A stretch of DNA of 64,000 nt from Fistulifera solaris (GCA_030295235.1 AP026125.1:2046001-2110000), one strand, 5' to 3'; positions 11,492-31,401 are shown, counted from the first letter of the stretch. The notes: generated by a model not told the origin, from the letters alone. Numbers and translations: made by a program.

Positions 11492-12225
11492 ATGGCATCT
11501 CGATTATCGTACTCGTGCGACCCACTCAATTGGGAAATTACAGTCGTCAAGAACTCCACCGGTTCTCGTTCGCCTCATCATACGAAACAAGCTCGGAACG
11601 GATGTTTCTCGAGTGTCAGTTCACCGTTTCGTAGCCCAAAGAGAGAAAACCCCAATCACTTTCGCTGGTCTACCGTACAAGAATCGGAAAATGTATTCTG
11701 TTTTCCGCGATCTTTGTCATCGCCCATGAATAATGCGACACTTGTTTCCGAGCACTCCTCGCGAAATGGACCCTTTCCGCACAAGGCGAAGTATAACAAC
11801 ATTAAGAACAAGAGCCATACTCGTCATCCGTCGAAAGTTTCCGTCTCTCTGAGACCGCCCAAGACGAAACCAGGGAAACGAACTAACAAAAGGGAAAGAA
11901 TACAAAGCCCGCCCCAGCTCCATCGCCGTCCGTCAAAACAACCTTATCTTCCATTCACTCGCTGGCCCCCGCTCGACCAAAGACTCCCTACAAATTCAAT
12001 CTGATGCGAAGAATGGTATGGATACGTCCCAAACCTGACGATAAATTCTGGATTCGAGGTAGAATCGAGAAGTGCGAGCAATCGCGGGTCGATGAAGTTA
12101 AAGAAAACGGAAAAGTATCGAGTACAGAAACGGTCTATCATGTCGTCAAATGCGCCGACGATGGAACTCTGTATCGCGTCCAGTTGCAACAAATGGAACA
12201 ATCAGAAAACCTGATCTGGTTGTAG
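11492..12225 (+). CDS. Array member 1: low-complexity basic N-terminus plus the shared C-terminal Tudor-like domain
   Basis: ORF 11492-12004 frameshifts into PYKFNLMRRMVWIRPKPDDKFWIRGRIEKCEQ..NLIWL*, homologous to the ends of the next four genes. Confidence 0.65.
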
Positions 12226-12923
12226 CTTGTGTTGAAGAAAGCCCAACCTATGCTTATTTTCTTGATGTTGCTGCGTCGCGAGCAGGAAGAGAATTCTTTC
12301 GAGGCTATGAGTGCTTGTCTCGCGGATGAAGATTGAAGGTCTTGATACGCAAATAAACGCAACGATGCCACTTGATGTATGATCACTTCTTTTGTTCATT
12401 CCGTTTTTTAAATCATGTGAAATGTTTGAGTGTAGTTGTTGATCGTTATGACGGCCAGGTCAAAAAAAAGCAAAATAATTGTCTATAGTGAATCAATTCA
12501 TGCGACCCGATGCGACCTGGAATCATACTGGTTACTCCAACGCAAGGCGTTCTCTAGTCTACAATAGAATTTAAATCATGGCGTTTCAGACTACAGCAAA
12601 TTCATCTCTAGTTTTCTCGGATGCGTCCTACGTAAACGATGAAAAAATATCCTAATTTGGATTTGAATCGGTTCGTTTCGCTCTTAATTATTGCGGCAAG
12701 GCGTTCTAGATAAGGTACCTGATACGAGGTACGACTCGCAAAACTAATGGTGACCAAGATCCGAGGGAGATAGTTCGATGCGGATGCGACATGAAGAGGT
12801 ACACTTAATGCGACAATTTCGTCGCATGGCAAAAAAAATGTCTATCTTTTTATTGCGTTCTTCATTACCAGGTATCTTATTAGACCTACATGAACACATT
12901 TCGCATTCAAATAATCGAGCACA

Positions 12924-15900
12924 ATGAGTGAAAGTCAATCAAATCTTCCGCCTGAAATTCTTCGCGCTTACAAAGAAGCCAAGGAGAGAGGGCTACCGGA
13001 TGGCTGGGTTTGCTCGGTTGATGTGAGTGAAACCCGTCCTGTTCGGTCAATCCAGGTGGCTCTAATAAAACGCCCACTCTTGCTTTTATTTTCGTCGTAG
13101 GAACAACATCGCCGCACGTGGACATCTCCGGATGGCAGAACGTGTAACTCGGTGCGAAAAGCGCTCGAGATTGCGGCTGAAAGTGTACCTTTAACTGGCG
13201 TCGAGTTGGGAAAAGAAGTTCCTACTTTGAGGACTCCCAGTATAGTCAAAAGAGGGCTAGGGAAGACGAAAGACCAGGCACATTTTTAAGAGCATCAATT
13301 CCGGTAATTACGCTTTCTTCAGGGAATGCTGGAGGAGGAAGCGACAAAGATTGCAACGCCGGAGATAAAGAGAAAGGAAAACAACGTAGGCGGCCAAAGC
13401 CGCGTAGAGGGCGGGGTCGACCTAGGAAAACACCGAGTTTGTTAGAAACATCGTACACTGAAGAAACAAAGGGAAATACTGATGAAAACGAGTGGGAAAG
13501 AGACGAGGAGCCTCTGACGTCGCCTCCACCGCCCCTGGACCCCGAATATTCGTTGGATGGGAAAGATCATCCTACAGCACCCACCACGGTACATTGGGAT
13601 CCCCAGAGTGCAGACGGAAAGAAAATTGGGTGGAAAATCCGAGTAGCTCTCGATAGTACAACATGGGCCGAAGGCCGCATTGTTCGGTACGATCCCTACA
13701 CACACAAGCACAAAATTCGTTTGCAGCACAACGGAGAAGAACACTATGTTTGGATTTGGATCCGAAACAAACAGCATAACGTAAATCTCGCAACGCGTAT
13801 AGTATGGGCACACATGAAGGGTTATGCATGGTGGCCGGTCATAGTCATGGAGACAAATACTTATGATCCATTGACAATGCATGTTCAGGTAGAATATTTC
13901 GGATCTACGAGAAGAGCCAAAATACGAGACGTCGATCAATATATTCGGCCTTTTCATCCCAATGAGTGTGACCCAATCGAAGCGGGAATTGATATTATTC
14001 GTAACGCCTACGAAATAGCTTGTGTGGAATTCAAAACCATTCAGAAAACACAAAATGAAGCAGCGCTTTTCTACGCGGAAAAATCATTGCATCTTTGTGA
14101 TCAGAAAGCTCCGATGCGGATTGTCGGTAGGCGCGTCCAGGTGTTTCGAGATGATGTCAACTACCCATATGGTGATACTGTGGTCGGAACAGTCCGCAAG
14201 TACAGTGGCATTCAGAAAAAGTTCCTGGTCTCCTTTGAGGTATCGGAAAAGACCAATAGTAAATATGATGCAATGTGGATGACGCTCTCTACTCGCAATG
14301 CAAAGTTACAGGGTAAGCGCACTGCCCACGCTGAGGTTACACCGAAGGCCTTGGTCCCTTTCTTGGTCGGGTATCAAGCCGATGAATCAGATGAATACTA
14401 TAAACTTCTAAACGGCCACTGTCGTGCCTGCGTCGAGACATGGAAGTCGACAGACTCGCTTCGAGTAGTTTGTGATCAGTGCCATTCATCATTTCATTTG
14501 GGGTGCTTTGATCCGCCACTACAACAAGAGCAATATCAAAAGCTAGTCAAGGACGGCGCTCCCTTGTTGTGTCCGCAATGTACAGTATGTCGCGGCTGCT
14601 ACCAAAAGGACTCAACCTTTGGCAGTCATCAGCTTTCGCCAATACCCAATAACCTGAATTTTCCTGCTTATGAGACATTAAATGTCTGCTTGCCGTGTCG
14701 CGAAGCGTACGAAGAAGATCGATATTGTCCAAATTGCGCGCACACATTTGATGATGATCGATACAATGAAGTTCGGCAACAACATAATTGGTACAGCAGC
14801 CAAGACGGCTGCAAGCAAAGAACGGGACTGGTGGAAGACACGGAATTCCCTCTCGCCACCGGAAGGTTCTCCGATGATTGCACGATACCGCAAGGGCTAG
14901 AGGTACATCCGTCTAGATACTATCCAGAAAACACTGAGTTTGGTATGGCAGAAGCCGAAATGTTAGGGTGCGATTCTTGTGGAGGATGGGTACATGCGGG
15001 CTGCGCAAACTTGACCAGAGAAGAATATGAACAAATACTGAACGGAAATCACAAGCCTTCGGCGACTGGGCAAGAGTTTCTTTGCCGCGTTTGTTGTCGC
15101 AAGCGTTGTTTGAAAATTATCAAGGAGCTAAAATTGCAAGATCGCACAATGCTATTTTCTCAACCAATATCCCGAGTACAAGCGCCTATTTATCACGATC
15201 TGATTGAAGGCCCGGTTAATTTCAAAGTTTTTACTGATCGGGCACAGAACAATGACTATTTTTCCTACGCATGGACACGCGAGCTCTTCGAGCTAATGGT
15301 GTTCAATGCATTGTCTTCTTGTGGTAATGTAAGTCCTTTTTCCTTTGAACAAATGTAACCGCTATGTTGCGTTTCCTTACATGTGCACGAAGGACAAAGC
15401 TACTTGGAACGAAGCGAAGCATTTTACCTCTCTGGCTTAAAGAATGTATTTCAAAAGATTGGCAAGGTGCTCCACCCGGCGTTTATGACAAAGATATTCA
15501 GATTTTGCTTAAAAACGGCCAGAAACTACAGTGTCGCTCAGAGGTACATCGTGCTCGTGATGTCATAAGAGCGAAGAACGACGATCGGGCTTCTGCAGAA
15601 ATAGTACCTGCAGCTGGTGTTTCCCCTCTCAACGCAGCAGCAGTATTGAATGCCGACAGTGGTAGCTCCGATCCGATTCACGCGTCGCAGACATCTACTC
15701 CATACCACAGGAATATGGGGGGAGGGAACAGCAAGAACGGAAGGTCTGTTTCAACAGCGACAGGTCCTCCAGCGCAACCTAAAGCGGCTTACAACCAAAC
15801 TGCAGTCGGACGAATGGTGCTGTACCGCGAAAACGCCGACGAAATCTTTTGGGTTCGATGCAGGGTTGAGAAGCGTGAACAATTGCGTGTGGATGAGATT

Positions 15901-16029
15901 GGAGAAGACGGGAACATCTCGACTTGCGAAACAGTAATACATGTGATCAAATGCTGCGAAGATAGCAAGATATCTTACCGGGTGGACCTGGAGCAATCAG
16001 AACAGTTGAAGAAATTGATTTGGATATAG
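12924..16029 (+). CDS. Array member 2: SET-less paralog of the 25527 gene (MBD-like, AT-hook, Tudor-like, PWWP, PHDs, degenerate bromo, novel C-terminal domain)
   Basis: Exon 1 MSESQSNLPPEILRAYKEAKERGLPDGWVCSID, intron 13023-13100, RGRGRPRK, KGYAWWP, CDQC..HLGC and CDSC..VHAGC PHDs, C-terminal YNQTAVGRMV..LIWI*. Confidence 0.85.
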
Positions 16030-16536
16030 CTACCAGAGTACGTGTGTCCACGCTTTATTTTTCTAATAGACTGATGTTTGTTATTTTTCGTTTCCTGTTT
16101 TGGTTTGTTGCATTTGGTTTCGTACGAGCATTATTTTTAGCCATCCACTACTTAGAAGATCCTAATTTGGACATAAATCGCTTCGTTTTGTACTTGGCTG
16201 CAAAGTCAATAGTCAATAGATCCATCTCTTATTTGAAAGCAGACAAATTATTTCTGTGGTTTTCGATTGCCATCTTGTTCCTCCTAGTTTACTACTGTAC
16301 CAAGTACCAGGTAGGTTGCGTGCAACGACTTTAGTCTTCCTAGTTGAGTGCCGTTGTGTCACCGGTGCTGGTCTGATTTTTAGAGTACTGCGGTACCTTG
16401 TAATAAAACTCATTCTATTCATTCATTCGTCTTTTTTTTGTCCTCTTTCATTCATTTCAAAGTTTTGTTGCATAAACGCAGGTTTCATAGACTAAACTGC
16501 ACCAATACCAGCCAACACCGATTCGTTATTAGAATT

Positions 16537-18085
16537 ATGACTGAGCAGTCGGACTTGTGCCCGGAGCTCAAGCGAGCTTATCGCGAAGCGAAGGCTCAAG
16601 GCCTGCCCGAGGGTTGGACCTGCCGCATACTAGAACACAAGGTAAGATCGATTGGCCCACGCGAGACAACAATAACTTATTGACTTTGCACTTCATTTTT
16701 TTAGAGTGGCAAAAGCGCCGCAGATGGGAAGCACCCACTACAGACAGCCGTAGATTACGTCGAATATGTCGATCAATTCCAGATGCGCTCGAGGTTTCTG
16801 TTAAGTTAGGTTTGCTTCCTCCTGATACGAAAATTATGCGGAAGAAATTAAAACGAACCGAGGAGCGGACAGGAAGAGATCTTCTTCAACAGGTTGCTCC
16901 GTCAACCGAAGCGTTTCCCACGCAAGCAGCAGAAGGGAAAGGCGATGACGGAAGAAAGGAGGTTTCGGTGGAAACGCGGCCCGTTCAAACAGCAAAAGTG
17001 CAAGATAAAGACAGGCTGATGGAAACGACCGCGGCGCGGACATCGAGAGAGCCCGGTAAAAACGAAGGAGAAGAGGGCGAACCTCAGACTAAAATTTCAT
17101 TGACGGCAGCTGTTTCATCGAAGCCTTCTGAGACGAAGCCAGCGATCCAAGAGAATTCAAAGCATACATCACCTCAAGCGCAATTGGTAGGCACGCACCC
17201 TACGCTGGCCGAAGAGCATCGTTATGACAGAAGACAGGATACTTTGCTGGAAACGACCGCCGCGCAAAAAGCAAAAGATCGAGTTGAAAATGAACGAAAA
17301 GAGGAAAACCCCCGAATCAACATTCATTGACGGCAGCTGTCCCATTGAAGCCTTCTGAGACGAAGCCAACGAGCCAAAAAAAATACAAAGCATACACCGC
17401 CTGAGTCACAGGTAATAGACGCGTCGCCAGCGCTAACAGCGGAAGAGCGAGGGGGAGGCGGAAACAAGGATGCCGTGATGGGAACGACTCCTTCGCAAAC
17501 AGCCAAGGGACGAGGTGACGACGTACGACAAGGGAATGCAAAACATACACCACCTAAGTCACGACTGATGGACACACACCTGACGCTGGCGAGAAGAGAG
17601 CAAGGTGAAAATGGAAGAAAGGGTTTTCTGATGCAATCGACCCCCGCACAAACAGTGAAAGAGCCAGGTGAAGACGAACAAAAGAGGACGACTCTCCGAA
17701 TAATTCAGGGATTACAACTCTTCCATTAATGTATTATGACTTGAAGACAGCAAGCAAAGAGGATACAAAGCATGCCTCCGCTCAATCACCGACGAAAGCG
17801 GATTTCTTGGCTCTTTCACACTTGTTGACGACTCCCAAACCACCGTACGGTCATAATGTGGTGGGACGAATGGTTTGGCTTCGACCGAAACGCAACAAGG
17901 AGTTCTGGGTTCGAGGGCGGATTGAAAAGTGTGAACTATTAAGTGTTTGCGAGGTTAAAGAAGATGGGGAAATTTCTCATAGTGAGACGACGCTTCATTT
18001 TATCCGATGCATGGACAATGATACGACGTACTTCAAAGTGAAAATACAACAGATAGAAAGCCCGGATAATTTGATTTGGATGTAG
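16537..18085 (+). CDS. Array member 3: MBD-like N-terminus, degenerate ~76-aa repeats, shared C-terminal domain
   Basis: MTEQSDLCPELKRAYREAKAQGLPEGWTC, intron, then KRRRWEAP..CRSIPDALEVSVKLGLLPPDT. Ends YGHNVVGRMVWLRPKRNKEFWVRGRIEKCE..NLIWM*. Internal frameshifts. Confidence 0.75.
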
Positions 18086-18656
18086 CCGGTATAGGGTAGG
18101 TAAAGACTATAAATTTAGAGGGTAGGGTCGGAGGTCGGAGTGTCAGTGGCCTTATGGAACTAGATTCCCCTACGGGAGTCTAAGGTTACGTGATTTCCAG
18201 GTAAACATGCGCGACATTTGCATCTGTTTTCTTATTCATGTTTAATGCTCCCATTAAAGTCCCTTTTTCAAATTTAGTCTCTATGCAGGCATGTGGAACG
18301 CCTTGAAATGATATAAATTGCTGTCGGACCCGAATTTCAGCGAGATCGAGGATGATTAGGTCCGCTTCGATAAAATTCCTACGAGGCCTACGTGAATTTC
18401 CCACAGACAATCGAAGCGTTCGATTCAAAGCGACTGTAATCATCCTGTATGTGAATGAGCAAGGTTAGGTCAAGGTATTACGGAGTATTACATTTAAGTC
18501 AAACCTACCTGGTACTCGTAAAGTGCACGATGGCGGATTGGACAATATCCGGGTACCCCTCTGTCGATAAATTTCCCTATCTGCGTTTTCTGTTGTGTTC
18601 TTACTTTACGGTTTCATTATATTGACAAGCTTTTTATATCAAATTCATCAAGCACA

Positions 18657-21600
18657 ATGAGTGAAAGTCAATCAAATCTTCCGCCTGAAATTCTTCGCGC
18701 TTACAAGGAAGCCAAGGAGAGAGGGCTACCGGATGGCTGGGTTTGCTCGATTGATGTAAGTGAATCTCGTCCTGTTCGATCAGACCAGGTTGCTCTAGGT
18801 GTAATAAAACGCTCACTCTTTGTTTTTTGTCGTCGTAGGAACACCATCGCCGCACGTGGACATCTCCGGATGGCAGAACGTGTAATTCGGTTCGAAAAGC
18901 ACTCGAAATTGCGGCTGAAGTTGCTGCAGTCACTTCCGGAACGCATACTGAGTTAGGAAAACGAGATTGGGGGTGCGATAATCTATTTAGTCGGAAAATG
19001 GCGAAGATGGAGGGAAGGCACGCATCACTCTTTGAAATCACGCCCTCTCCAGAGATGGATGAAGAGAGTAGTGATGACGAAGACGACGGCAGAAGTAAAG
19101 TTTCACATGGGACATGTAGCGAAGAAAAAGAAGAGGAAGACGACGAACCTCTGAAGCCTCCGCCTACTCCATTAGACCCGGAATATTCGCTGGATGGGAA
19201 AGATCATCCTACCGCACCGACCACGGTGCATTGGGATCCTCAAAGTGTCGATGGCAAAAAGATTGGCTGGAAAATTATTGTCGCTCTTGACAACGATGAG
19301 TGGGCTGAAGGTCGCATCGTTCGTTATGATCCTTACTCGCATAAACACAAAGTTCGATTGCAGCACAACGGACGAGAAAACAATGTATGGCTGTGGATAA
19401 GAAATTTTCAACACAACGTGCACCTGGCAACGCGTCTGGTGTGGGCGCGAGTCAGGGGATATGCATGGTGGCCGGCCACGGTCCTGGAAGCAATTAGTTA
19501 TGATCCGTCGTCAAAGCAAGTACAGGTAGAATTTTTTGGAGCCGGCGAACGAAACAAAGTGATAGATTCAGATAAGTTTATTCGGCCTTTTGTCCCTCAT
19601 CAAGACGAATTGATTGTAACGAAAGGCGACAAAATTCGTGAAGCAAATGAGTTGGCTTGTAGTGAATTCAAGAAGATTCGGGAGATACGAAACGAAGCCG
19701 CGCTTTTTACGCGAGAAAATCGTTGCACCTTTGTAATCAAAAAGCGCCGATGCAGATCGTCGGTAGGCGCGTCCAGGTATTTCGAGATGGAGGCGACATT
19801 GTTGTCGGTAAAGTGCGCAAATACAGTGGATTCCAGAAAAAGTATTTGGTGTCTTTTGCTATGATGGAAGACCACAGCAATCAACACGATGCGGAGTGGA
19901 TGCTATTAAGTTCAGGTAATACAAAAGTGCTGGAACCGAGCAATCCGCAAGCTGAAATACCAATGGAGGCCATAGTTCCCTTTCTTGTCGGTTATCAAGC
20001 TGATGAAGCAGATGATTACTACAAACTGATAAATGAACACTGTCATGGCTGCGTCGAGACATGGGGGGAAACGGATACGCTTCGGCTAGTGTGTGATCAG
20101 TGCGATGCGTCCTATCACCTGGGATGCTTTGATCCGCCCCTACAACAGGAGCAATATCAAAAGCTTATCAAGGAGAAGGTCCCCTTATTGTGTCCGCAGT
20201 GCACAATGTGTCGTGGTTGTTACCAGAAAGACTCGACCTTTGGGAGTCACCAGCTTTCGCCAATGCCTAAGAACCTGAGCTTTCCCACGAATGAGACGCT
20301 GAATGTATGCTTGCCGTGCCGTGAAGCGTATGAAGTGAAACGATATTGTCCAAATTGCGCACACACGTGGGATGATGTGCGCTTTAACGAGGTGCGACAT
20401 CAGCACGATTGGTATGGGAGCAGGGAAGGTCGTAAGCGAAAGACGGAATTAGTGGAGGATACGGAATTTCCTCTCGTCATAGGGGCGTTTTCGGGTGACG
20501 ACAAAATACCCCACGGTCTCAAAGTCCATCCATCTTTGCACTACCCGGAGACAACTGAGTTTGGCATGACTGAAGTTGAAATGTTAGTGTGTGATGCGTG
20601 CGGTTCTTGGGTTCATGCTGGTTGTGCAAATGTTAGCGAAGAAGAATACGAAAAAGTCTCGGACGGGAAACACCCGTTATTTGGAAAAGAATTTCTATGC
20701 CGCGTTTGCTGTCGAAAGCGTTGTCAAGCTATCATTGAGGCTCTGAAAGAAGAAGATCGAATGATGATGTTTGCCCGACCAGTACCTGAAAGGGATGCTT
20801 CGAGTAACTGTAACTCCATCAATGGTCTGATGGACTTAAACATCATGAATCATGACAGAACACGCGGAGAACGGCCATTATTTGTCTTACGCGTGGACAC
20901 GAGAAATGTTTGAACTGATGGTTTTCCACTCGTTGTCGTTGTCCTACGTTCGGCGTGTAAGTGAACTTTGCTTCTGAAACTCGGAAATGGTCTGCGTATT
21001 GCTTCACTCACACGACCACAAAGGATACTGTCGCCTGGAATGAAGCGAAACATTTTTATCGGCGTGGCATAACTCATGTTTTTCGAACACTTGGAAAAGC
21101 CGCTCCGTCTAGTTCCTATAGAAAAGATATAAGAAATTTGCTCAAGATTGGTGAACGAGCCCGACTTGAAGAAGATGGCAGCGCCCGCGTTAGTGAAAGA
21201 GCTGAAGTTGATGATGTGGTCAACGATACCGGAGACATGGCACATGGGGTTGCGTTGGTTCCACTCAATACAAGAAAGGAGAATTCCAACAATTGCGAAG
21301 GAGGGGGTGACCTTTCAGATGATGCTTTGGATGTAGCTGCGTCGTCGACCCCAATCGAAAAGCAAGCGGCCGAGAACTGCTTTGTTGGGCAGGAGACCTC
21401 AGCAACTACAGCCACACAGGTGTTGTCTCCCCCAGCGACATACAAAGAAAATGTTGTGACCAGGGTAGTGATGTTTCGTGAAAAACGTAAAGATGAAAGC
21501 TGGATTCGGGGCAGAATTCAAGAATGTGAACAGGTGCAGATAAAAAAGCACAGCGAAGACGGAATCACGACAACCTGCGAAACAGTATATTATCATTTGA

Positions 21601-21695
21601 TTAATTGCTTTGACAAAGAACAAACTGTTTGCAGAGTGAATCTGCAGCGCTTGGAACAAACGGGGAGACTAATTTGGACGGAGGAAGTCAAATGA
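18657..21695 (+). CDS. Array member 4: SET-less paralog (MBD-like, Tudor-like, PWWP, PHDs, degenerate bromo, novel C-terminal domain)
   Basis: Exon 1 is nearly identical to member 2. RGYAWWP and PHD fingers present. Ends YKENVVTRVV..WIRGRIQECEQ..LIWTEEVK*. Confidence 0.85.
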
Positions 21696-22045
21696 CGTGT
21701 GTGATTTCTGTGTTGCCGCTTGCCTTATTCGTTTGTTATTACGAGTAGCAAAGTTTAATTTACATGCTTCGTTGAATCAGTCAAGCGAATGCACATTATT
21801 TGCATCTACTTAGAAAAATGATGGTTCGCCACAGTTAAACACATAGTTGAGTACCGCTGTGATGATCCTTTCCGGCCTGTTTAACGCATAACCTTATACG
21901 GAGTAACGATGCGGATGATTTTGTTGGTTGAAAACAAAAAAAAACGCAACAAAAAAAATGCATTTGTTGAGTGTCAATAGGAAGTCTTTTTCATTGTATT
22001 TACTTGAGACAGCGAGGATACAAATGCTTTTATTTGAAATCTTGA

Positions 22046-25000
22046 ATGATGAACGGAAATCAGTCGAACATTCCTCTTGACATCATTAACGCGTATTGTA
22101 ACGAAAAAGTTGGAGGCAGTGCGGATAGCTCGACGTCTTCTATTGCTGTAAGTGCTCGCTCCGTAATAGGAGTCTTCCGGTTTCCCATTACCTGGTACTC
22201 TCAATTATTTCTTGTTTAATAGCTAGATTACTCACTCTATCATATTTGCAGACGCAGGGTCCCCTGTCCTCAGGCAACGATCGCTCATATAATGCAGTCT
22301 CGAAAACAGATCGAATCTCGGTTGACAAATCTTTGCTCCCGCCCAAGAAGCGGAAGCTCACTTCCGCCTTTTCCCCGGTTCAATCACCAGAGAAAAGAAA
22401 GACAGGGCGACCGCCGAAAAGAGGGCCGGGTCGGCCGCGAAAGACACCATTATTAGAAGCACCCGACGTTGAGCCATGCGAGGAGGAAAGTGACGAGAAT
22501 GAATGGGAATGTGATGACGATGAACCGCCGCCTCCTCCTCTGTTAGATCCGGAACACTCACTGGATGGGAGTGATCATCCGACAGCACCCACCACAGTGC
22601 ACTGGGACCCTCAAAGTGTCGATGGAAAGAAGATCGGTTGGAAGATACACGTCGCATTAGACAACAATAAATGGGTGGACGGACGCATCGTTCGCTACGA
22701 TCCTCACTCGCACAAACACAAAATTCGACTGCAGCACGACGGACGAGAGCACAATGTATGGATTTGGATCCGCAACGATCAACACAGCGTCCACTTGGTC
22801 ACACGGATGGTGTGGGCGCTGGTCAAGGGGTATGCCTGGTGGCCGGCTATGGTTAGGGAGACAAACAGCTACGATCCAGTGCAGCCATTGCAGGTGGAAT
22901 TTTTCGGGACGGGAGAGACGAGTGCACTGAGAGATTCTCCCGACTCGATCCGACCCTTTTCGCCGCATCAGTTGGATCCCCTGGTCGCGAAACACGATAA
23001 GAAACGGGACGACAGGGCGTACGAATTAGCGTGCGAAGAATATGATAACGTTCGGAAGACGAGAAATGAGGCCGCGCTGTTTTACGCGAAAACGTCGTTG
23101 CATCTTTGTGATAAGAAAGCTCCCATGCAGATCATCGGGAAACGTGTTCAGATTTTTCTTCCGGGTGGTGACATTGCAGTCGGGCAAGTGCGCAAATACA
23201 GCGGCTTACAAAAGAAATATCTTGTTGCTTTTGAAATGTCAGGAGATCCCGACAATCAATGTGAAGCGTCTTGGTTGACACTGAATACTCGTAATGCACG
23301 AGTGCTCGGAACTCACTCTCCCTACGCTGAAGTTGCACCGGAGGCTTTGGTTCCCTTTTGGTCGGTTACCAAGCCGTCGAATCGGATAGCTATTTCAAGC
23401 TACTCAACAACCACTGCCGTGGCTGCGTTGGGACATGGAAGAAAACAGATATGCTCCGGATAATATGTGACCATTGCGACGCTCCGTATCATTTGGGTTG
23501 CTTTGATCCACCATTGCAACAAGAGCAGTATCAACAATTGATCAAAGACGGTGTTCCTTTGTTGTGTCCGCAGTGCACTATGTGTCGTGGTTGTTACCAA
23601 AAGGACTCGACCTTCGGAAGCCACCCACTTTCACCACTGCCGGAGAATCTGAGCTTCCCTGCGAACGAGACGCTGAACGTTTGCCTGCCGTGTCGTGAAG
23701 CGTATGAAGACGAACGATACTGTCCTAATTGCGCACACACTTTCAATGACGATCGATATAATGAAGTGTTAGAGAGGCATGAATGGTATAGCAGTCGAAG
23801 GGGGCGTAAAGTAAAGACAGAACTTGTTGAAGATACGGAGTTTCCTCTCGTCATGGGAACGTTTTCAGGTGATGATAAAATTCCGCACGGGCTCAAAGTG
23901 CACCCATCTCTGTACTACCCCGAGACCTGTGAGTTCGGAATGGCAGAATCTGATATGCTAGGATGCGATTCTTGTGGAGCATGGGTTCATGCAAGCTGTG
24001 CAGGTGTCACCGAAGAAGAATTCGAACAAATATCAGAGGGGGGAGATCATATGTTTGCAAAGAGTTTCTTTGCCGAATTTGTTGTCGCGAGCGTTGCCTT
24101 GATATTATCGAAGCACTTAAAGAAGAAGACCGAACGGAGCTCTTTTCGCGACCCGTAATTGAAAGTGATGCACCCGATCACAACCCTAATTACGGACCAA
24201 TCGACTTGAACATAATGACAGAACGAGCAGAAAAAGACGAATATTTATCGTATGTGTGGACACGGGAAATGTTCGAGCTGATGGTGATGAACGCATTGAC
24301 TTCTACTCAACTCGTAAGTGCGACGAGAATATCTTGCCTGGCCTTACAGTGTACGGTGCTAATCTGCTCGCTCTCAATTGTAGGATACAGCCGCTTGGAA
24401 CGAAGCAAAGCAATTTTATCAATCTTGTCTCCGAAATGTTTTCCGTAAACTTGCAAAAGCTGCTCCGCCCGGACCCCATGAGAAAGATGTTCAAAAATTA
24501 CTGCACGATGATAAAGAAACGAAAGGTGAAGGAATACGGAAAGAAGACTTGATCGTTGATGAAGTAGTGCCAGTGGTTGCAATTGACGCTCCTTCTTTCC
24601 CTTCGGTTTCTTCCAAAGACCGGAAGACCACGAGGTCGACCTAGGAAGACGCCTCTTGTGACAGAAACTTTTCCTGCGCAAATCGCAGCGGGGGATAGCG
24701 AGGAGGAAGCTGATAGTACTCCATGTCATTCGCCGAAAGCGGTAGTGTCATCCAACCCACGCAAGACGAATTCCACGGGAAAGAATAGCAACGATCGGAA
24801 ACATGTGAATCCTATTCCACCTCAGCCACAGTTGATAGAAACCACCCGAGCGGTAACTGGTTCAGTCTTGCTAGAGCAACCGACACCGCCGTACAATCAA
24901 AATGTGGTTGGACGAATGATATGGTTCCGTCGCAAACGAGACAAACTTTCCTGGTTTCGTGGGAAAATTGAGAAATGCGAGGAAACGAAATCGCATGAGG

Positions 25001-25131
25001 CCGGAGAAGATGGAAGCATGTCAACGAAAGAGGTTGTGATTCACGTCGTCAAATGCGTGGATGCGGAAGAAACTTTCCACCGACTGAGATTGCAGCAAAA
25101 AGAAGAGTCGGGGAACTTGCTTTGGATGTAA
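22046..25131 (+). CDS. Array member 5: SET-less paralog (degenerate MBD-like exon, AT-hooks, Tudor-like, PWWP, PHDs, degenerate bromo, novel C-terminal domain)
   Basis: Exon 1 22046-22147 MMNGNQSNIPLDIINAY.., intron 22148-22251, GRPPKRGPGRPRK, KGYAWWP, PHDs, GRPRGRPRK, YNQNVVGRMIW..NLLWM*. Confidence 0.85.
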
Positions 25132-25526: not shown

Positions 25527-28500
25527 ATGAGTGAGGATCAGTCCGACCTTCCTCCCGAAATCATCAACGCTTATCGCGAGGCAAAGGCCAGAGGTCTCCC
25601 CGACGGCTGGACCTGTTCTATTGATGTACGTGAGATTCTGATGCCTGTGCTCTTTGTTAACGGCGAGCCCTAGTCTCCTTCTCCTTTTCTCGTATACTCA
25701 ATCAATTACTTTATTTTGCAGAAACGTCATCGCCGCAAATGGACGGCTCCGAACAACGGTCGATCGTGCGACTCGATTCCGAAAGCACTGCAAATTTCTG
25801 TCGACTTGGGTTTGCTTCCTCCGGACACTGTAATTGAATCAGGAAAGCGAAAGCGAACGTCGGGGGATACAGGTAGCCGAAAGAAAGCAAAGGATGGAAG
25901 ACGACGAGGCCGACCGCCCAAAGCATCTTCAGCAGCGGAGACACTTGATGCCGAAGAGCCAGAGGAGCAATACAGCGAAGAAGAAGAGGAGGGAGACGAC
26001 GAGCCTCTCAAGCCTCCTCCCCCTCCATTAGACCCGGAGCATTCTTTGGATGGTAAGAATCATCCTACCGCACCCACCACGGTGCATTGGGATCCCAAAA
26101 GCGCCGATGGGAAAAAGATTGGCTGGAAAATTCGAGTCGCTCTCAATAGTACGACATGGGCGGAAGGCCGCATCGTTCGCTACGATCCCTACACACACAA
26201 ACACAAAATTCGACTGCAACACAACGGACGAGAACACAATGTGTGGATTTGGATCCGCAACGATCAGCACAACGTGCACGTGGCGACGCGGATGGTGTGG
26301 GCCCACGTGAAGGGTTATGCCTGGTGGCCGGCCATGGTCATGGAAACGAACACCTATGACCCGGCGCAGCAACTGAGAATTGAGTTCTTCGGAACAGGAG
26401 AAGTCAGTACGCTTCGGGATTCGCCCGAGTCGATTCGTCCCTTCTCGCCGCACCAGTTGGATCCCATTGTCGCGAAACACAAGAAGAAACGCAATGCCAG
26501 GGCCTATGAGCTGGCCTGCGAGGAATACGAGAACATTCAAAAGACGCGAAATGAAGCAGCGCTCTTTTACGCGGAGAAGTCATTACATCTTTGCGATCAG
26601 AAAGCTCCGATGCAGATCGTCGGTAGGCGCGTCCAGGTGTTTCGAGATGATGTCAACTACCCCTATGGTGATACTGTGGTCGGGAAAGTTCGTAAGTACA
26701 GTGGCTTCCAGAAAAAGTTTCTCGTTTCTTTTGAAGTGTCGGAAAAGACCAACAGTAAATATGATGCAACTTGGATGACGCTCTCTACTCGCAATGCAAA
26801 GTTACAAGGAAAGCGTACTGCGCACGCTGAGATTACACCGGAGGCCTTGGTCCCGTTCCTCGTCGGTTACCAAGCCGATGAATCGGATGACTATTACAAA
26901 CTGCTAAATGATCACTGCCGTGGCTGCGTCGAGACATGGAAGAAATCGGATACGCTTCGGGTAGTATGCGATCAGTGCGACTCGTCCTATCACTTGGGAT
27001 GCTTTGATCCGCCCCTGCAACAGGAGCAATATCAAAAGCTAATTAAGGAGGGGGTACCTTTGCTGTGTCCGCAGTGCACAATGTGTCGTGGTTGTTACCA
27101 GAAAGACTCGACCTTTGGAAGTCACCAGCTGGCGCCAACGCCTAAGAACCTGAGCTTTCCCGCGACTGAGACGCTGAATGTATGCTTGCCGTGCCGTGAA
27201 GCGTACGAAGTGGAACGATATTGTCCCAATTGCGCACACACGTGGGATGATGTGCGCTTTAACGAGGTGCGACATCAGCACGATTGGTATGGGAGCAGGG
27301 AAGGTCGTAAGCGAAAGACGGAATTAGTGGAGGATACTGAATTTCCTCTCGTCATGGGGGCGTTTTCTGGTGACGACAAAATACCCCACGGTCTCAAAGT
27401 CCATCCATCTTTGTACTACCCGGAGACAACTGAGTTTGGCATGACTGAAGTTGAAATGTTAGTGTGTGATGCGTGCGGTTCTTGGGTCCATGCTGGTTGT
27501 GCAAATGTTAGCGAAGAAGAATACGAACAAATCTCGGACGGGAAACACCCGTTATTTGGCAAAGAGTTTCTTTGTCGCGTTTGCTGTCGAAAGCGCTGTC
27601 AGGATATTATTGAGGCTCTGAAAGAAGAAGATCGGATGATGCTATTTGCCCAACCAGTCTCTGAAAGAGATGCTCCAAACTATCACGATCTCATCAAACG
27701 ACCGATGGACCTGAAAACGTTGACAGAACGGGCGCAGAGCGACGAATATCTATCTTATGCGTGGACAAGAGAACTTTTTGAGCTTATGGTGATGAATGCA
27801 CTAACTTTCAATCGCTTCGTAAGTGGTTTGATTTGATTTCGCTTGTCAGCTGTACAATGTGCCTAACCCGACCGGCCCGCTTTTCATAGTATACTGCTGT
27901 TTGGAATGAAGCGAAGAGATTTTACCACTCCAGCTTAAAGAATGTTTTTCAAAGAATTGGTAAGGCTGCACCACCTGGTCAGTACGAAAAGGCAGTTCAA
28001 AAGTTACTCAAAGAGGGTGAAGAAGCACGACGTCAAGAAGCAGATCGCGTTCAGGTTGACGAAACAGTAGAGAAAAAGGATTTAGTTGCTGGGAGTATGG
28101 CAGTTGCGATTGATTTGCCTCCTATCCGTTCTTCAGTTCCAGACCAATCTTCTTGTGTACCTTTTCTGGAAGTCGAAGTCACAACTGTGGACGCATTCTA
28201 TAATTGCTGGATGGATGCTTGCTTTACTTGCGGAAGCTCTGGTGCTTCGGACACGATGCTATTTTGTGTAGATTGTGGCGAGGCTTTTCACGCTTTCTGT
28301 GCCAACGTTCCCATTCACAGTATGAGTGAGGCGGCGGTAGCTGGTTGGAGATGCCCTAATTGCAAAATTTGTGAGATTTCCGGCGATGTTCCAGCGGACG
28401 ACACTCAAATGATCTTCTGCGAGATGTGTGATCGGGGCTTCAATTTGGGGATGCTTGATCCGCCCTTGACTAAAAGCTCCACCCGGTTTGTGGGTGTGTG

Positions 28501-31401
28501 GGCAATGTTTGGATTGTCAGTTTTGTCGCAGCACATCCGAACCAGCATCGCTGAAATTCTGGTCTCGACACACAGACATTTGCTTTCGGTGTGGTGGTTG
28601 TGATGGCTTCTCAGACACAATGGAAAAGTGTAAAGTCTGCAGTGGGCTGCTGCGAGAAGCGGATACCGATTTTGTTGTATGCGATACATGTTCTGCGAAA
28701 GTTCACACAGCTTGTGACCAAGAAGCGTATGACTTTTCCCAGACATCGGCATCGCGGACCCAACGAGTTACTCGAATCAAGGTAAAATCGGATTTGTTCT
28801 TTGACTTCACACAGGATTCCACAAAACCTGACATCGTTGTCTCCGGTTGCAGTACTCTTGTCCTTCTTGTCCTCGTCTTATCGCTCCCGATGCATTAGAT
28901 GCTGACGCTGATCGAAGCTTATTGCTAAAAATCGCTCGTTCGAGCGCAGACTGTTCAGAGAAGCTATTGGATAGCATCATATGGAAAACGCACGACATGT
29001 GGAGAGATGAGTATATTGGCATTATTAACACAGGTATTCGTTTGGTCGAACAAACCCGCCGCGACTTGGGTGATCCGCGATTTGTGGCTCAACAAATTCT
29101 TGCAGATGGAGCCGACGTCTGTATGTCAACAATTCAAAGAGCGCTTCGCTTTTGTCATGTTGTGAAACGCCGCAGAGTAGTTGAGCGTGGGTGTAGATCA
29201 TCGAGCATCGAACACACTCTACTCTATGCTAAGATGGCAGCTTCATTTATAGAATTATCATGCCAGGTTCTTCGACGCAGTGTGAGCAAAGAGGTCGTGC
29301 ACTACGATCGACTTTTAGAGTTGTTAAAGCCGCCAAATCAACAAGGCGTCTTTTTGGCACCATTAGACCCTCTCCGCTATCAGCCAGTCTCGCTTTCTGA
29401 TGAAAACATCACTGATGTGAATCTCTCCCTGCATGTACGGGTGGCAGATGTTGCAGATCCTGAAAATACAAAGAATGCTCATTTGCAACCTGCAGCACCT
29501 CTCTGCGGTTGGACAGAGCAGTTGGGTCAAGGTCGAAATCAAAGTGAATGGAAAGACCCTCGTGAATGCTGCCTCTGTCATATTTGTGGAGATGTCGATG
29601 CCGGCTTCCAAGACGAGGAACCCGACGAGGCCCCTGAGGGTGAAATAATCTTTTCACCTATGGGTCGGTTATTGCCTTTGAAAGACGGTTATTGGGTTCA
29701 CACTTCTTGTGCGTTGTGGAGCTCTGAAGTTTTCGAAGCTCCATCCGATGGGAATTTACATGCTGTCGAGAAAGCCAGAAGCCGGGGAGCTCAGTTAAAG
29801 TGTTTTGGTTGCGGAAGACCAGGTGCCACAGTCGGATGCTGCAAGAGCAATTGTCCATATAATTACCACTTCACCTGCGCAAAAGTCTGTGGGGCTGTCT
29901 TCACTCGCGAATCAAAAAGTTTTTTGTGCAAACCACAAAATGCACGCAACCGAAATTGTCGCTAAGGAAAGCTTTGAACCAATGAAGAGTTTAATTGTCG
30001 CCGGAGAGAAAAGGAGCGCCGTAAACGACTTCGGAGACAGGAGAATGGGAGACATGCTTACGGTCGGAGCCCTGACAGTTCATTCTCTAGGAAAGATTGA
30101 CCCGGATTCGGATAATTTTCACTCGGAAAATTACATAACGCCGCCCTGGTTATATTGCGACGCGTATTTTTGGTCGATGAAAGATCCTCGAGCAAGGACA
30201 GTTTACGTTTTGAAGGTTTTCAAATTACCTGACGGTCGGGCTGAGTTCGCGATAATTCCAGGAGACGACCCAACGTCGACGATTCGCGCAAATTCAATTT
30301 CGTCAGCTGCACACGACGTTCATGGACCGATTAGCGTAAAGTTAATTTTGATTGTTTTTCACAAGGTGACCTACTGTCCCGCCTTCCGATGACTCGACGA
30401 TCTCGGAAGAAAACATTTGGCCTCAATGGCCCACAGGTATGTCGCTGAATGAGATACATTTACCTCAAACGAAATCCGCTGACCTTTTTCGGCTTTTTAG
30501 TTTTTTTGGTTTTGGGCTCGATTGCATACGTAGAAAGCTGGAGACCCTGCCTAACGTTGAAGCCGTTGTTACGCCGCTAACTCCCAACTTCACTTCTTAC
30601 CGCTTTTGTTTCCAGCCAGCCAGATATTGAAACAGTCATGGCATTGCACCGAAAACGAGCCGCTGCTCATGCTGAGCTTGCTCTAGAAAATGCTAGTGGC
30701 TGTGCTCGTACCGAGGGCATAAAAGCTGTTGCTCGTAGTGGTGGCAGCGGGAGAATTACTCGAGCTCTGGTCCGAAGTGCAGAAGAAGTGGAATCCAATA
30801 CTACATCCCAGTCGAAGCGGACAGAAGACCGCGCTAAAGCTGACCGAAATATGTACCAAGTCAAGTACAAGCGAATGAAAAGCGTCCCGATCGAAGAGCG
30901 TCTAGCCGCCCGTCGATCTCATATCCACGGATGGGGTCTTTTTACGAAGATCGATATTCGCAAGAATGATCCTATCACCGAGTATATGGGCGAAGTGATT
31001 CGACAAGCAATTAGCGACAAGCGCGAACGTGCTTATGAGATCTCCGGGGAGGGTAGCTGTTACATGTTTCGGCTGGACTTGCAGCGCATTGTGGATGCAA
31101 CCAAAATCGGTTCCATGGCACGGTTCATGAACCATTCCTGCCAGTCGAATGCGTACGCTAAGATCATCAATGTGGATACCGATCAGGGCATGGACCAGAA
31201 AATTGTTGTTTTTGCCTCTCGAGACATTGCTGCGGGCGAGGAAATCACGTATGGTACGTTTGTTTTGGGTTCATCTGTGTCGTCTCTGTACTTGTTTCTG
31301 AATAACTCAATTTGCCTTGAACAGACTACAAATTCCCTGTTGAAGACGGCAGTCTCAAATGTACTTGCGGAGCACCCAATTGTATCGGCCGATTGAACTA
31401 G
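25527..31401 (+). CDS. Trithorax/MLL-like histone H3K4 methyltransferase (MBD-like, AT-hook, Tudor-like, PWWP, PHDs, bromo, ePHD, FYRN/FYRC-like, SET, post-SET)
   Basis: SET motifs SHIHGWGLF, EYMGEVI, YMF, DATKIGSMARFMNHSC, GEEITY|DY. Post-SET CTCGAPNC. Bromo PNYHDLIKRPMDL..NALTFN. ePHD WVHTSCALWSSEV..CFGC..GATVGC..YHFTCA. FYRN VGALTVHSLG. Confidence 0.93.

Follow-up and report, generated by a model that had tools for sequence, protein, structure and literature searches.

The gene cluster described here raises the question of why a complete KMT2/trithorax-type gene of Fistulifera solaris is preceded by five genes that carry no SET domain, and whether these neighbours are working chromatin proteins or mere remnants. 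The window, that is, the whole stretch of DNA analysed, comprises 64,000 nucleotides (GCA_030295235.1 AP026125.1:2046001-2110000), and the six genes (G1-G6), all on the same strand, lie at 11492-31401. GenBank proteins were placed on the window by exact 5-mer chaining, and a stop codon directly follows each chained gene (G1, G2, G3, G5 and G6). A preliminary description had proposed five same-strand genes upstream of a full SET gene; the same starts and stops were obtained from the chaining and, for G4, from its ATG and ORF end. At least five of the six genes are annotated in GenBank, as hypothetical or PWWP proteins and one "MLL3", and homeologs in the other subgenome were seen for G1 and G6 only. 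The genes and their introns are as follows.

11492..12225 (coding to 12222), + strand: G1, GenBank FisN_4Hh256, 244 aa, single exon
12924..16029 (coding to 16026), + strand: G2, GenBank FisN_4Hh257, 988 aa
13023-13100 and 15329-15392, + strand: introns of G2
16537..18085 (coding to 18082), + strand: G3, GenBank FisN_4Hu258, 471 aa
18657..21695, + strand: G4, ATG at 18657, last ORF ends at 21692
22046..25131 (coding to 25128), + strand: G5, GenBank FisN_4Hu260, 970 aa
22148-22251 and 24314-24383, + strand: introns of G5
25527..31401 (coding to 31398), + strand: G6, GenBank "MLL3", 1831 aa
25626-25721, 27819-27889, 28782-28852, 30437-30501 and 31253-31323, + strand: introns of G6

Judged by its domain content, G6 is a full KMT2/trithorax-type gene. 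Its N-terminal module, AT hook, Tudor-like region, PWWP domain, PHD fingers and bromodomain are followed by more PHD fingers, an ePHD, FYRN/FYRC, SET and post-SET. Matches in Pfam were obtained for SET (E 1.6e-24), FYRN (1.1e-20), FYRC (2.5e-4; 21.6 bits at a cut-off of 21), the ePHD as zf-HC5HC2H (3.7e-11), PHD across five stretches (1.5e-23) and the bromodomain (3.1e-14). The PDB chain closest to the SET region is KMT2A (E 9e-31), followed by yeast Set1 and KMT2B/D/C, and EZH and NSD chains score below KMT2/Set1. The C-terminus reads ...CTCGAPNCIGRLN and contains the CxCxxxxC post-SET motif. SET, FYRN, FYRC, ePHD, several PHD fingers, bromodomain and post-SET are shared with the MLL/Trithorax enzymes, whereas G6 has in addition PWWP, a Tudor-like region and a small N-terminal module with conservation among diatom orthologues. 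Family membership alone suggests that G6 may act as an H3K4 methyltransferase in a COMPASS-like complex.

The five upstream genes contain graded portions of this protein. G2, G4 and G5 copy G6 over its reader half, which begins with the N-terminal module and ends with the bromodomain; the copy is continued by a linker, which in G5 contains a second AT-hook/acidic segment, and by a C-terminal domain (CTD). Only PWWP, PHD and bromodomain are recognised by Pfam in G2 and G5, and only PWWP and PHD in G4, the bromodomain of which falls under the detection level. G3 consists of the MLL N-terminal module and basic region, a long low-complexity linker and the CTD; its aa 3-163 are 40% identical to G6 aa 4-127 (E 2e-23), and it copies no more than the first ~130 residues of G6, the proposal having been that it keeps only the MBD-like exon. 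G1, for which no parent-derived domain had been recognised, indeed has none: a low-complexity basic N-terminal part precedes the CTD, and blastp against G6 returned nothing significant (best E 0.57). No Pfam domain exceeded the threshold in G1 or G3. SET, FYR and ePHD were absent, according to Pfam, from all ORFs in 11438-25128 and from the GenBank proteins of G1, G2, G3 and G5. This upholds the absence of ePHD/FYR/SET claimed for G2, G4 and G5 (GenBank proteins for G2 and G5), as well as the description of the genes as catalytically null, in so far as none of the five has a SET domain. Unlike KMT2 enzymes, G1-G5 lack SET, FYR and ePHD and are not members of that class as enzymes.

The CTD, of ~85 aa, forms the C-terminal end of all five genes, each of which terminates at the CTD stop codon. 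An HMM built on the five copies was run on the whole window in six-frame translation (1,326 ORFs) and matched precisely these five (E 9e-46 to 4.5e-42; next ORF E 0.67), with no match in G6, so that a single shared end domain absent from the parent was confirmed.

11968..12222, + strand: CTD of G1, HMM E 2.1e-45
15772..16026, + strand: CTD of G2, HMM E 1e-43
17828..18082, + strand: CTD of G3, HMM E 9.2e-46
21423..21692, + strand: CTD of G4, with a 4-residue C-terminal extension, HMM E 4.5e-42
24874..25128, + strand: CTD of G5, HMM E 1.4e-44

Among 1.84 billion representative proteins the CTD profile has 9 matches. No Pfam family was matched at E <= 0.01 in any of the five copies (at E <= 1, a lone 12-residue Agenet stretch in G5, E 0.024), no PDB chain by sequence at E <= 10, and hhalign gave a probability of 0.25% for a relation to the parent reader half. 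The predicted model is all-β (pLDDT 79.8). VIA-align ranks the chromo-barrels of RBBP1 and MRG15, Tudor, SAWADEE and Agenet domains highest (rmsd 2.1-3.9 Å over 51-64 residues), with Z of 5.0-5.9, where any Z below 8 can mean merely a common arrangement. The best Foldseek match is the hybrid Tudor of KDM4, which is weak (E 0.25), and the Atlas feature leads Spin/Ssty and PTM/DIR17 Tudor score 0.85-0.87, under the 0.9 bar. The model thus points weakly to a Tudor/chromo-barrel-like β-barrel. The likeness to Royal-family barrels (Tudor, chromo-barrel, Agenet, SAWADEE, PWWP), a class with an SH3-like five-stranded fold, would consist of the predicted all-β barrel and these weak structural rows, whereas the CTD differs from them in having no sequence match to a Pfam family or PDB chain and a Z below the specific level. 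Royal-family domains bind methyl-lysine or methyl-arginine by an aromatic cage; in the CTD, all of 11 sequences agree on Y7 and W27, and almost all on H57 and W84. The pN/pS between copies is 0.32-0.55 with pS saturated, and the apparent constraint on the CTD is best shown by a single comparison, that of G1 with its homeolog (P0066), in which the CTD is ~94% identical and the remainder of the protein ~59%.

With their common end domain, the five SET-less neighbours look like products of gene fusion that form one family of non-catalytic chromatin proteins. The reading favoured here, with moderate confidence, is that of an old family restricted to the Fistulifera solaris lineage, the fusions of which arose by tandem duplication at the DNA level with breakpoints inside coding exons, and the intact members of which are non-catalytic chromatin-binding proteins. 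A small G1-type gene would have donated its 3' part, the basic segment and the CTD, which would have been placed after a ~130-residue N-terminal piece of the KMT2/trithorax neighbour (N-terminal module, AT hook and acidic stretch), giving the G3 type. The KMT2 reader half, to just beyond the bromodomain, would then have been joined to a G3-type gene at the AT hook, giving the G2/G4/G5 type, and this chimera would have been duplicated. Such a two-step fusion is likely, as it fits two alignments: from AT hook to CTD, the G3-type protein P0065, which comes from a related source, runs unbroken along G5 aa 799-930 (E 1e-35), and the AT hook in the linker of P0061 aligns with G6 aa 89-121 (E 6e-6). 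The positions of introns 1 and 2, common to the reader-half copies and G6, suggest duplication at the DNA level. Intergenic similarity has nearly gone (one 33-bp match, otherwise almost none), and therefore the duplication breakpoints cannot be read directly; the order G1, G2, G3, G4, G5, G6 requires rearrangements beyond the two-step model. Chimeric genes formed by tandem duplication with breakpoints in two neighbouring genes have been described in Drosophila. The arrangement is the same: between an intact upstream and an intact downstream gene lie one or more chimeras that begin with the 5' part of the downstream gene and end with the 3' part of the upstream one, and introns are retained. 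In Fistulifera, however, the process would have been iterated, with at least two fusion steps, more duplications and then gene conversion, and it involves a chromatin writer.

What the intact members may do depends on the state of the copied modules, which was scored on 96 positions invariant in 20 diatom orthologues. G2, G4 and G5 keep 85, 82 and 85 of these, respectively. All 14 invariant positions of the PHD1 and zinc module are retained in the three copies; in the same order, PHD2 keeps 15/15, 15/15 and 14/15, the middle zinc module 9/10, 10/10 and 8/10, and PWWP 14/18, 14/18 and 17/18. All zinc ligands of the PHD modules are retained, as are the Tudor-like region and PWWP, and Pfam scores PWWP and PHD over the cut-offs in each copy. 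The bromodomains keep 13-15 of 21 invariant positions and reach 32 bits in G2 and 26 in G5, against 53 in G6, with no match in G4. Bromodomains anchor acetyl-lysine through the conserved Asn with which helix B ends, and the ortholog-invariant pair F696/N697 is replaced by S/C in G2, L/S in G4 and S/T in G5. The N-terminal module, complete in G4 (18/18 conserved positions), is eroded in G5 (4/18). This module, first called MBD-like, has no Pfam MBD match at E <= 1. Its profile against the PDB returns WW domains only, weakly (E 0.017-0.84), and Foldseek mostly weak WW domains (E >= 0.15), with AtMBD6 at rank 23; in the structural alignment of the predicted model (pLDDT 78.1), AtMBD6 stands at rank 20 (Z 3.3, rmsd 1.9 Å, 40 residues, 28% identity). 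The proposal that G2, G4 and G5 copy the N-terminal half of G6 and stop after the bromodomain stands, with the qualification that the N-terminal module of G5 is eroded and that the G4 bromodomain escapes Pfam detection. The loss of the bromodomain Phe-Asn pair and of the G5 N-terminal module reduces the set of readers that had been attributed to the family.

The intact members would share their targeting modules with the H3K4 methyltransferase but would not methylate, the region of the catalytic core being replaced by the family-specific, putatively Tudor/chromo-barrel-like CTD. They would therefore occupy or partition the target sites of the writer, or link another partner to them. That they compete with the H3K4 writer or serve it as adaptors would be plausible; the earlier proposal had also named decoys. 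A comparable adaptor is NSD3-short, in which reader modules work without the catalytic domain. NSD3-short and other SET-less isoforms of histone methyltransferases share this feature; they are products of alternative splicing of one gene, whereas the Fistulifera proteins are encoded by separate genes under their own selection and have a new C-terminal domain.

The SET-less proteins might instead be partners of the writer, joining the same complex or being docked by the CTD so as to extend or redirect its reading. The targeting modules are common and conserved, and a CTD present on three N-terminal builds (G1, G3 and G2/G4/G5) suits a common docking or effector module. In Drosophila the MLL3/4 homolog is split between Cmi/Lpt, which has the reader half, and Trr, which has the SET half, so that a KMT2 reader half with PHD fingers likewise exists as its own SET-less gene. 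In Fistulifera, however, the parent is intact, and the reader half is duplicated rather than split, fused to a foreign CTD and present in several tandem copies. Cmi/Lpt is counted among the subunits of the MLR COMPASS complex in the fly (PMC7144903), which provides a precedent. Partnership is nevertheless considered unlikely, since the reader half of G6 is itself complete and leaves nothing to complement, and no COMPASS-binding motif is apparent to which the CTD might be related.

The coding capacity of the copies was a further point, as the window shows frame changes in every one of them. The sequence was compared with Logan contigs, not reads, of two independent runs (X1 and X2) and with RNA contigs (X3 and X5). 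Relative to the contigs of the two runs, the window contains 12 listed indels, at least 8 of them within G6 exons, and 46 further ones in 20 kb. The GenBank proteins of G1, G2, G3, G5 and G6 read through every frameshift site, and the gap count of each independent contig equals the number of predicted sites. The frameshifts in G1, G2, G3 and G5 are thus errors of the window sequence. G4 is the exception.

~11890, + strand: 1-bp window error in G1
~13208, 15422 and 15466, + strand: three 1-bp window errors in G2; GenBank reads through, X1/X2 gap number agrees
~23358, 24060 and 24616, + strand: three 1-bp window errors in G5; three gaps in X1 contig 23169-25775
between 28473 and 30613, + strand: nine frame-breaking 1-bp window errors in G6
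19704..19708, + strand: G4 lesion 1, run of 5 T, one base shorter than in the three paralogues, -1 frameshift
20842..20855, + strand: G4 lesion 2, ATCATGA tandem duplication within the bromodomain, +7 frameshift

Both G4 lesions are reproduced in independent contigs, one contig for each: lesion 1 by X1 contig 18856-19770 with 0 gaps and 0 differences, lesion 2 by X2 contig 20623-21814 with 0 gaps. G4 has therefore probably been disabled recently, and it is either a transcribed pseudogene or a gene for a stub alone, of ~373 aa. That it is alive as such a short gene, the remainder being a long 3' UTR, is rather improbable. The ORF is open from the ATG to its stop at 19864 and covers the N-terminal module with all its conserved positions, the Tudor-like region and PWWP; RNA contigs lie at both gene ends, and the terminal-branch dN/dS of 0.18 is non-neutral. 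Past lesion 1, however, the sequence is still free of ancestral-frame stops and has recently been converted by G6, which fits a very recent loss equally well. Moreover, an mRNA whose stop codon lies well before the last intron is normally exposed to nonsense-mediated decay, as that of G4 would be.

It is very unlikely that all five genes are decaying pseudogenes, functionless partial duplicates. Frame changes are many in every copy as the window reads, G4 carries its two reproduced lesions, and the bromodomains and the G5 N-terminal module are eroded. The GenBank proteins lack the frame changes of G1, G2, G3 and G5, however, the number of which equals the gaps of independent contigs, and the window has nine errors of this kind in the parent itself. 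The pairwise dN/dS of the reader halves is 0.06-0.22, with terminal-branch estimates of 0.14 (G2), 0.18 (G4), 0.08 (G5) and 0.03 (G6), and no copy has an ancestral-frame stop over ~620 codons although synonymous sites are saturated (pS 0.6-0.8 between copies). These values indicate that the reader halves are under purifying selection and, as a group, do not decay neutrally. In the tree, all five reader halves from Fistulifera group together (support 100/100), which, with the rarity of the CTD (9 in 1.84 billion), bears out the lineage-specific family; the three chimeras form a clade inside it (98/94) with branch lengths of 0.30-0.39 against 0.02 for G6. Judged by these estimates, the chimeras evolve faster than the parent, yet under clear purifying selection. 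Tree and dN/dS values alike are blurred by gene conversion, through which the copies exchange sequence with the parent; a tract between G4 and G6 stands out (blastn 88.5% over 980 bp; core 92-99% identical; dS 0.21 versus >1.2 elsewhere).

19946..20922, + strand: conversion tract in G4, with its counterpart at 26821-27790 in G6

Retained PHD zinc ligands and the presence of G1-, G3- and chimera-type relatives in other, more diverged sources also contradict decay, as does expression. RNA contigs cover G3, G4 and G6; among the SET-less genes, transcription is shown for no fewer than G3, G4 and either G5 or its homeolog. X3 and X5 contain GT..AG joints within G6 and the G3 3' UTR; three of the five G6 introns are confirmed by RNA joints. 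X3 shows 0 differences at G3 17999-18198 and at G4 18892-19135 and 21467-21701. Splicing is thus seen in RNA contigs on G3 and G6, and difference-free RNA contigs lie on G4.

18201..18277, + strand: G3 3' UTR intron, 77 nt, GT..AG; joint 18198>18276 (cut +2) in X3

An assembly artefact, in which copies of a single gene or of the two homeologs had been mis-joined or duplicated, has a negligible probability despite a window full of indel errors and an allodiploid genome, since the copies differ by 20-50% in DNA outside conversion tracts versus 6-10% for homeolog-like contigs on G6, long contigs of both independent runs bridge neighbouring genes (X1 15877-18396, 20623-23049 and 23169-25775; X2 21810-25038), and the separate GenBank gene models sit on a single 292,843-bp contig.

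In leukaemia, MLL fusions join the N-terminal targeting part in frame to a foreign C-terminus with loss of SET; they are somatic, pathogenic translocations with breakpoints ahead of the PHD fingers. The Fistulifera chimeras resemble them in combining an MLL N-terminal part with the C-terminus of another gene and no SET, whereas they would be germline, old, joined behind the bromodomain and kept by selection. A bolder and doubtful extension of the favoured reading is that the CTD is a new, diatom-lineage-specific β-barrel that reads methyl marks, and that the array would be a counterpart of the MLL fusions that arose naturally and was kept by selection, the writer's own targeting platform having been copied several times and connected to another output domain. 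If this were true, a graded set of non-catalytic proteins would tune the place and strength of H3K4 methylation in Fistulifera solaris, and G1 and G3 would be minimal forms of the same switch.

The array of five genes lacking a SET domain, upstream of a KMT2/trithorax-type H3K4 methyltransferase gene, is confirmed as an observation, far beyond chance. A search with the C-terminal domain encoded by the third gene led to a single protein cluster, which includes GenBank GAX24700.1, 'hypothetical protein FisN_4Hu258 [Fistulifera solaris]'. The genes were placed by linking identical 5-residue words, shared by the GenBank proteins and the three forward frames, into chains. The chained proteins, together with the ATG and ORF end of G4, agree with the starts and stops proposed in the preliminary description.

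Genes of the array and the adjoining writer gene (for each chained GenBank protein, a stop codon comes next)
11492-12222, + strand: G1, FisN_4Hh256, 244 aa, GenBank protein chained
12924-16026, + strand: G2, FisN_4Hh257, 988 aa, GenBank protein chained
16537-18082, + strand: G3, FisN_4Hu258, 471 aa, GenBank protein chained
18657 (ATG) to 21692 (last ORF end), + strand: G4, read from the window sequence, no GenBank model retrieved
22046-25128, + strand: G5, FisN_4Hu260, 970 aa, GenBank protein chained
25527-31398, + strand: G6, 'Histone-lysine N-methyltransferase MLL3' GAX24703.1, 1831 aa, GenBank protein chained

A single 292,843-bp contig carries the GenBank models of G1, G2, G3, G5 and G6. 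A second MLL3 (GAX24173.1, 1830 aa), located on another contig, is 95.6% identical to G6; it was taken as the G6 homeolog because F. solaris has been described as allodiploid. The Pfam domains of G6 comprise SET, FYRN, FYRC, zf-HC5HC2H (ePHD), five PHD stretches, a bromodomain and PWWP. The parent is a typical KMT2/trithorax gene that also has some features specific to diatoms. The copying of its reader half without ePHD, FYR and SET was borne out in G2 and G5 (PWWP, PHD and bromodomain) and in G4 (PWWP and PHD), while G1 and G3 gave no Pfam match above threshold. As had been described, G3 keeps only the N-terminal part of the parent (aa 3-163 against G6 aa 4-127, 40% identity, E 2e-23), and G1 carries no parent-derived domain, its best match to G6 reaching only E 0.57. 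Moreover, the claim that all five genes end in one shared domain absent from the parent was tested by an HMM of this roughly 85-aa C-terminal domain (CTD), built from the five copies. Of the 1,326 ORFs that the six frames of the 64-kb window contain, it matched exactly those five (E 9e-46 to 4.5e-42), with the next-best ORF at E 0.67 and no match in G6.

Frame changes occur in all of these genes. The GenBank proteins continue through every frame-change site (one in G1, three in G2, two to three in G3, three in G5 and nine in G6, the latter between 28473 and 30613), and many of these sites contain or adjoin short homopolymers. Contigs of four public sequencing runs were compared with window positions 11450-31449, including X1, a 51.6-Mb contig set, and X2, a wetland metagenome from an independent study. 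Over these 20 kb the window differs from the independent contigs by 12 listed indels of one to three bases and 46 more that were counted. G6 holds 10 of the 12 listed, most of the ten being common to X1 and X2, and the positions 28472, 29906, 30030, 30062, 30144, 30166, 30308 and 30333 match sites predicted from the GenBank G6 protein. Long contigs also show as many gaps as there are predicted sites within them, both in X1 (one in 11450-12066, one in 13118-14082, three in 15877-18396 and three in 23169-25775) and in X2 (two in 14281-15643). Most frame changes are thus errors of the window sequence, and the frameshifts observed here are no sign of decay. The errors are probably window-wide, and false frameshifts are to be expected in ORF readings elsewhere in the window.

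G4 is the exception, as its frame disruptions are not window errors. It is one base short in the T-run 19704-19708 relative to its three paralogues, and inside the bromodomain ATCATGA stands twice in tandem (20842-20855). Each lesion is supported by one independent contig: X1 18856-19770 covers the first with 0 gaps and 0 differences, and X2 20623-21814 covers the second with 0 gaps. As it stands, G4 encodes about 373 aa (the N-terminal module, Tudor-like region and PWWP) and stops at 19864. Real frameshifts, combined with a lack of expression and dN/dS near 1, had been named in advance as the mark of decaying pseudogenes; frameshifts supported by independent contigs are present in G4, and the other four SET-less genes are intact in independent data.

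The selective regime of the copied reader half was determined from a DNA alignment of G2, G4, G5 and G6, with the G6 reading frame as reference. Pairwise dN/dS was 0.06-0.22 in every region, far from the values near 1 that had been associated with decay, and no stop in the ancestral frame was found in the four genes over about 620 codons. Outside the conversion tracts, synonymous change has reached saturation (pS 0.6-0.8). A rough ω calculated from copy-unique changes, at codons where the other three copies are identical, was 0.14 for G2, 0.18 for G4, 0.08 for G5 and 0.03 for G6. Positions invariant in 20 diatom orthologues are largely kept (85 of 96 in G2 and G5, 82 of 96 in G4), including those of the Tudor-like block and almost every PHD/zinc position. 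Selection has conserved the reader modules apart from the bromodomain. In the bromodomain part only 13-15 of 21 invariant positions are retained, and the invariant F696 and N697 are replaced in all three copies. The bromodomain Asn anchors acetyl-lysine; because N697 is replaced, this function has probably been lost in G2, G4 and G5. The small, putatively MBD-like N-terminal module retains all 18 conserved positions in G4 and is eroded in G5, where 4 of the 18 are left. It had no Pfam MBD match, and its profile gave only weak WW-domain matches against the PDB. In a search with its structural model (pLDDT 78.1), AtMBD6 appeared at Z 3.3 (rmsd 1.9 Å over 40 residues, 28% identity) among many unrelated entries, and Foldseek returned mostly WW domains at E >= 0.15.

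Evidence of transcription came from the contig sets X3 and X5, which were treated as RNA on account of their GT..AG joints, none of the listed runs being recorded as RNA. These joints excise three G6 introns (27819-27889, 30437-30501 and 31253-31323), and one X3 contig excises a 77-nt GT..AG intron at 18201-18277, about 115 nt after the G3 stop and hence in its 3' UTR. X3 contigs with zero differences cover the G3 CTD (17999-18198) and two parts of G4 (18892-19135 and 21467-21701). Some X3 and X5 depth, for which the exactness of the match was not given, lies over G5 at 23456-24789. The contig over the G1 CTD, with 18 differences in 256 nt, probably derives from the homeolog. The cover is patchy, none being seen over 12784-17452 (G2 and most of G3), a stretch not counted as expression evidence; as contigs, these data carry no readable levels or full-length transcripts. 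At least some SET-less members are transcribed. Four locus tags and 'MLL3' were absent from the 11 supplementary files of PMC5935921, a paper that uses other gene identifiers and may give expression values for these genes under those names.

Several other features of the window were recorded. Within the G3-G4 spacer (18397-18579), contig depth rises to near 4,000 in X1 and X2 at about 18542-18579, with many different loose ends, and some contigs omit about 157-159 bases (from 18396/18398 to 18556). This stretch resembles a short repeat of high copy number or a small mobile element, which some copies have and others lack. Directly downstream of G6 lie a gene of the tmRNA-binding SmpB family (31449-32063, - strand, E 9e-48), the product of which is presumably organelle-targeted, and an XRN 5'-3' exonuclease gene (32774-35385, + strand). 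A single ORF at 5285-6349 (+ strand) joins OHCU decarboxylase and HIUase/transthyretin domains, two successive steps of urate breakdown in one predicted protein. A flavin amine-oxidase ORF at 53576-55276 (+ strand, E 3.5e-43) is a candidate polyamine oxidase or LSD1-type histone demethylase.

The history of the family was approached by a maximum-likelihood tree of 27 reader halves, namely 22 orthologue-like proteins, G6, its homeolog, G2, G5 and G4 (with X at the breaks). The five Fistulifera sequences form one clade (support 100/100), in which the three chimeras form a nested clade (98/94), and the terminal branches of the chimeras measure 0.30-0.39 as against 0.02 for G6 and the homeolog. 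Therefore, the duplications are lineage-specific, as had been proposed, and much older than the subgenome split, and they were followed by faster protein evolution. Introns 1 and 2 of G6 are present in the chimeras, which rules out retroposition and indicates an origin by DNA duplication. A sliding-window comparison revealed a mosaic: G2 and G4 are 86-98% identical over the first ~280 bp, G2 and G6 86-93% around G6 26577-26850, and G4 and G6 92-99% around 27072-27520 (blastn 88.5% over 980 bp, dS down to 0.21). This pattern is the result of gene conversion between the copies and the parent.

In the chimeras, the reader half gives way to the CTD part at a point inside the counterpart of G6 exon 3, and homology of the chimeras to G1 begins about 50 residues upstream of the CTD. 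The linkers preceding the CTD in G5 and in two chimera-type relatives, P0060 and P0061, hold a second AT-hook/acidic segment resembling the N-terminal one of the parent (P0061 aa 94-126 against G6 aa 89-121, E 6e-6). In G5 the AT-hook motif GRPRKTPL occurs twice, near the N-terminus (22429-22452) and in the linker (24616-24700), and this doubling suggests a fusion in two steps. The G3-type relative P0065 aligns without a break, from AT hook to CTD, with G5 aa 799-930 (E 1e-35). In the first step, the 3' part of a G1-type gene would have been fused behind the 5' end of KMT2, which encodes the module, AT hook and acidic stretch; the G3 type would be the product. In the second, the whole KMT2 reader half would have been joined to a G3-type gene at the AT hook, giving the G2/G4/G5 type, which would have multiplied afterwards. 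A tandem duplication with its ends in two neighbouring genes yields the upstream gene, a chimera and the downstream gene, and two fusions of this kind appear to be the simplest reading of the alignments. The present gene order requires further rearrangement beyond these two steps. Intergenic similarity is nearly gone (a single 33-bp match at 85% and another of 15 bp) and is uninformative on the duplication model. Comparison of G3 with itself by blastp gave no internal repeats at E <= 1e-3; one 15-aa stretch recurs.

The CTD belongs to no Pfam family and matched no PDB chain at E <= 10. Its profile found nine matches among 1.84 billion representative proteins, all at E <= 1e-10, made up of genes from the window itself and a small number of relatives. 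Word-indexed searches returned only Fistulifera-like clusters; these searches score representatives alone, so that representatives devoid of the CTD may hide long CTD proteins.

CTD-bearing relatives
P0088: G1-type relative
P0064 and P0065: G3-type relatives
P0060 and P0061: chimera-type last exons (second half of the bromodomain, linker and CTD)
P0063: protein of 111 aa with the CTD alone, from a different contig

P0088 and P0065 lie together on one 5,794-bp contig; therefore, G1-type and G3-type genes adjoin in a more diverged relative too. CTD genes thus occur beyond this locus, in that relative and, as P0063, elsewhere. A first metagenome scan found no CTD loci, and two metagenome loci were rejected as relatives, as their pattern-selected matches span 15-24 residues, of which no more than 15 positions fall under the HMM. 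Constraint on the CTD shows most clearly in its identity of about 94% between G1 and the homeolog, against about 59% over the other 160 residues. Among the five paralogues pN/pS was 0.32-0.55, with pS saturated. The AlphaFold model (11 sequences, pLDDT 79.8) predicts an all-β fold. Foldseek gave nothing below E 0.25, the top entries being the KDM4 hybrid Tudor, UHRF1 TTD and SETDB1 Tudor. An exhaustive structural aligner placed the RBBP1 and MRG15 chromo-barrels, Tudor domains, SAWADEE and Agenet first, at Z 5.0-5.9, which is below the tool's specific level, and atlas leads to Spin/Ssty and PTM/DIR17 Tudor (0.85-0.87) fell under the 0.9 bar. The Tudor-like and PWWP barrels of the parent were rejected as a source of the CTD, as profile-profile alignment (hhalign) with the G6 reader half gave a probability of 0.25%.

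Non-catalytic relatives are a recurring means of regulating chromatin writers and include SET-less isoforms, split genes and inactive paralogues. G1-G5 lack the catalytic half. The intact proteins would bind chromatin via the AT hook, Tudor-like region, PWWP and PHD modules at sites overlapping those of G6. They could not methylate, and they would also be devoid of the SET-proximal region, which carries the catalytic core complex in KMT2 enzymes. The shared CTD would add a further reading or docking function, which G1 and G3 would have too. The role rated most likely, at rather less than even confidence, is that these proteins compete for the sites of the writer or divide them with it, the CTD acting as an adaptor. 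A partner role inside the writer's complex, by analogy with fly Cmi/Lpt and Trr, ranks next and would be unlikely.

SET-less relatives of histone methyltransferases are known from split genes, short isoforms and oncogenic fusions, and chimeric genes formed by tandem duplication are known as well. Known non-catalytic relatives of writers are mostly from animals and plants and arise via splicing or simple duplication. GenBank already has entries for at least five of the six genes, G6 as MLL3 and the others as hypothetical or PWWP-domain proteins. A literature search on Fistulifera with MLL or histone methyltransferase gave no paper on Fistulifera among the ten best matches; searches on diatom trithorax, SET domain or PWWP found nothing on such a family, and those on chimeric, tandem-duplicated histone methyltransferases without a SET domain nothing comparable. 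What is new here is the combination, its iteration at one locus beside the intact parent, the C-terminal domain and the visible intermediate forms.

Summarizing, a practical lesson is that the window holds many 1-bp errors and that its frameshifts are no evidence of pseudogenes. F. solaris serves as an oil producer, and a method based on CRISPR ribonucleoproteins has been reported in this species (PMC13276009); knock-outs and tagging are therefore feasible. The array supplies a new domain of about 85 aa whose partner can be sought. Moreover, the whole proposed path is present at one locus: the donor gene, the intermediate fusion and the fusions with the full reader half stand beside the intact writer, one copy has only recently been broken, and gene conversion between copies and writer continues, which makes the locus a clean natural case of new chromatin regulators assembled from parts.
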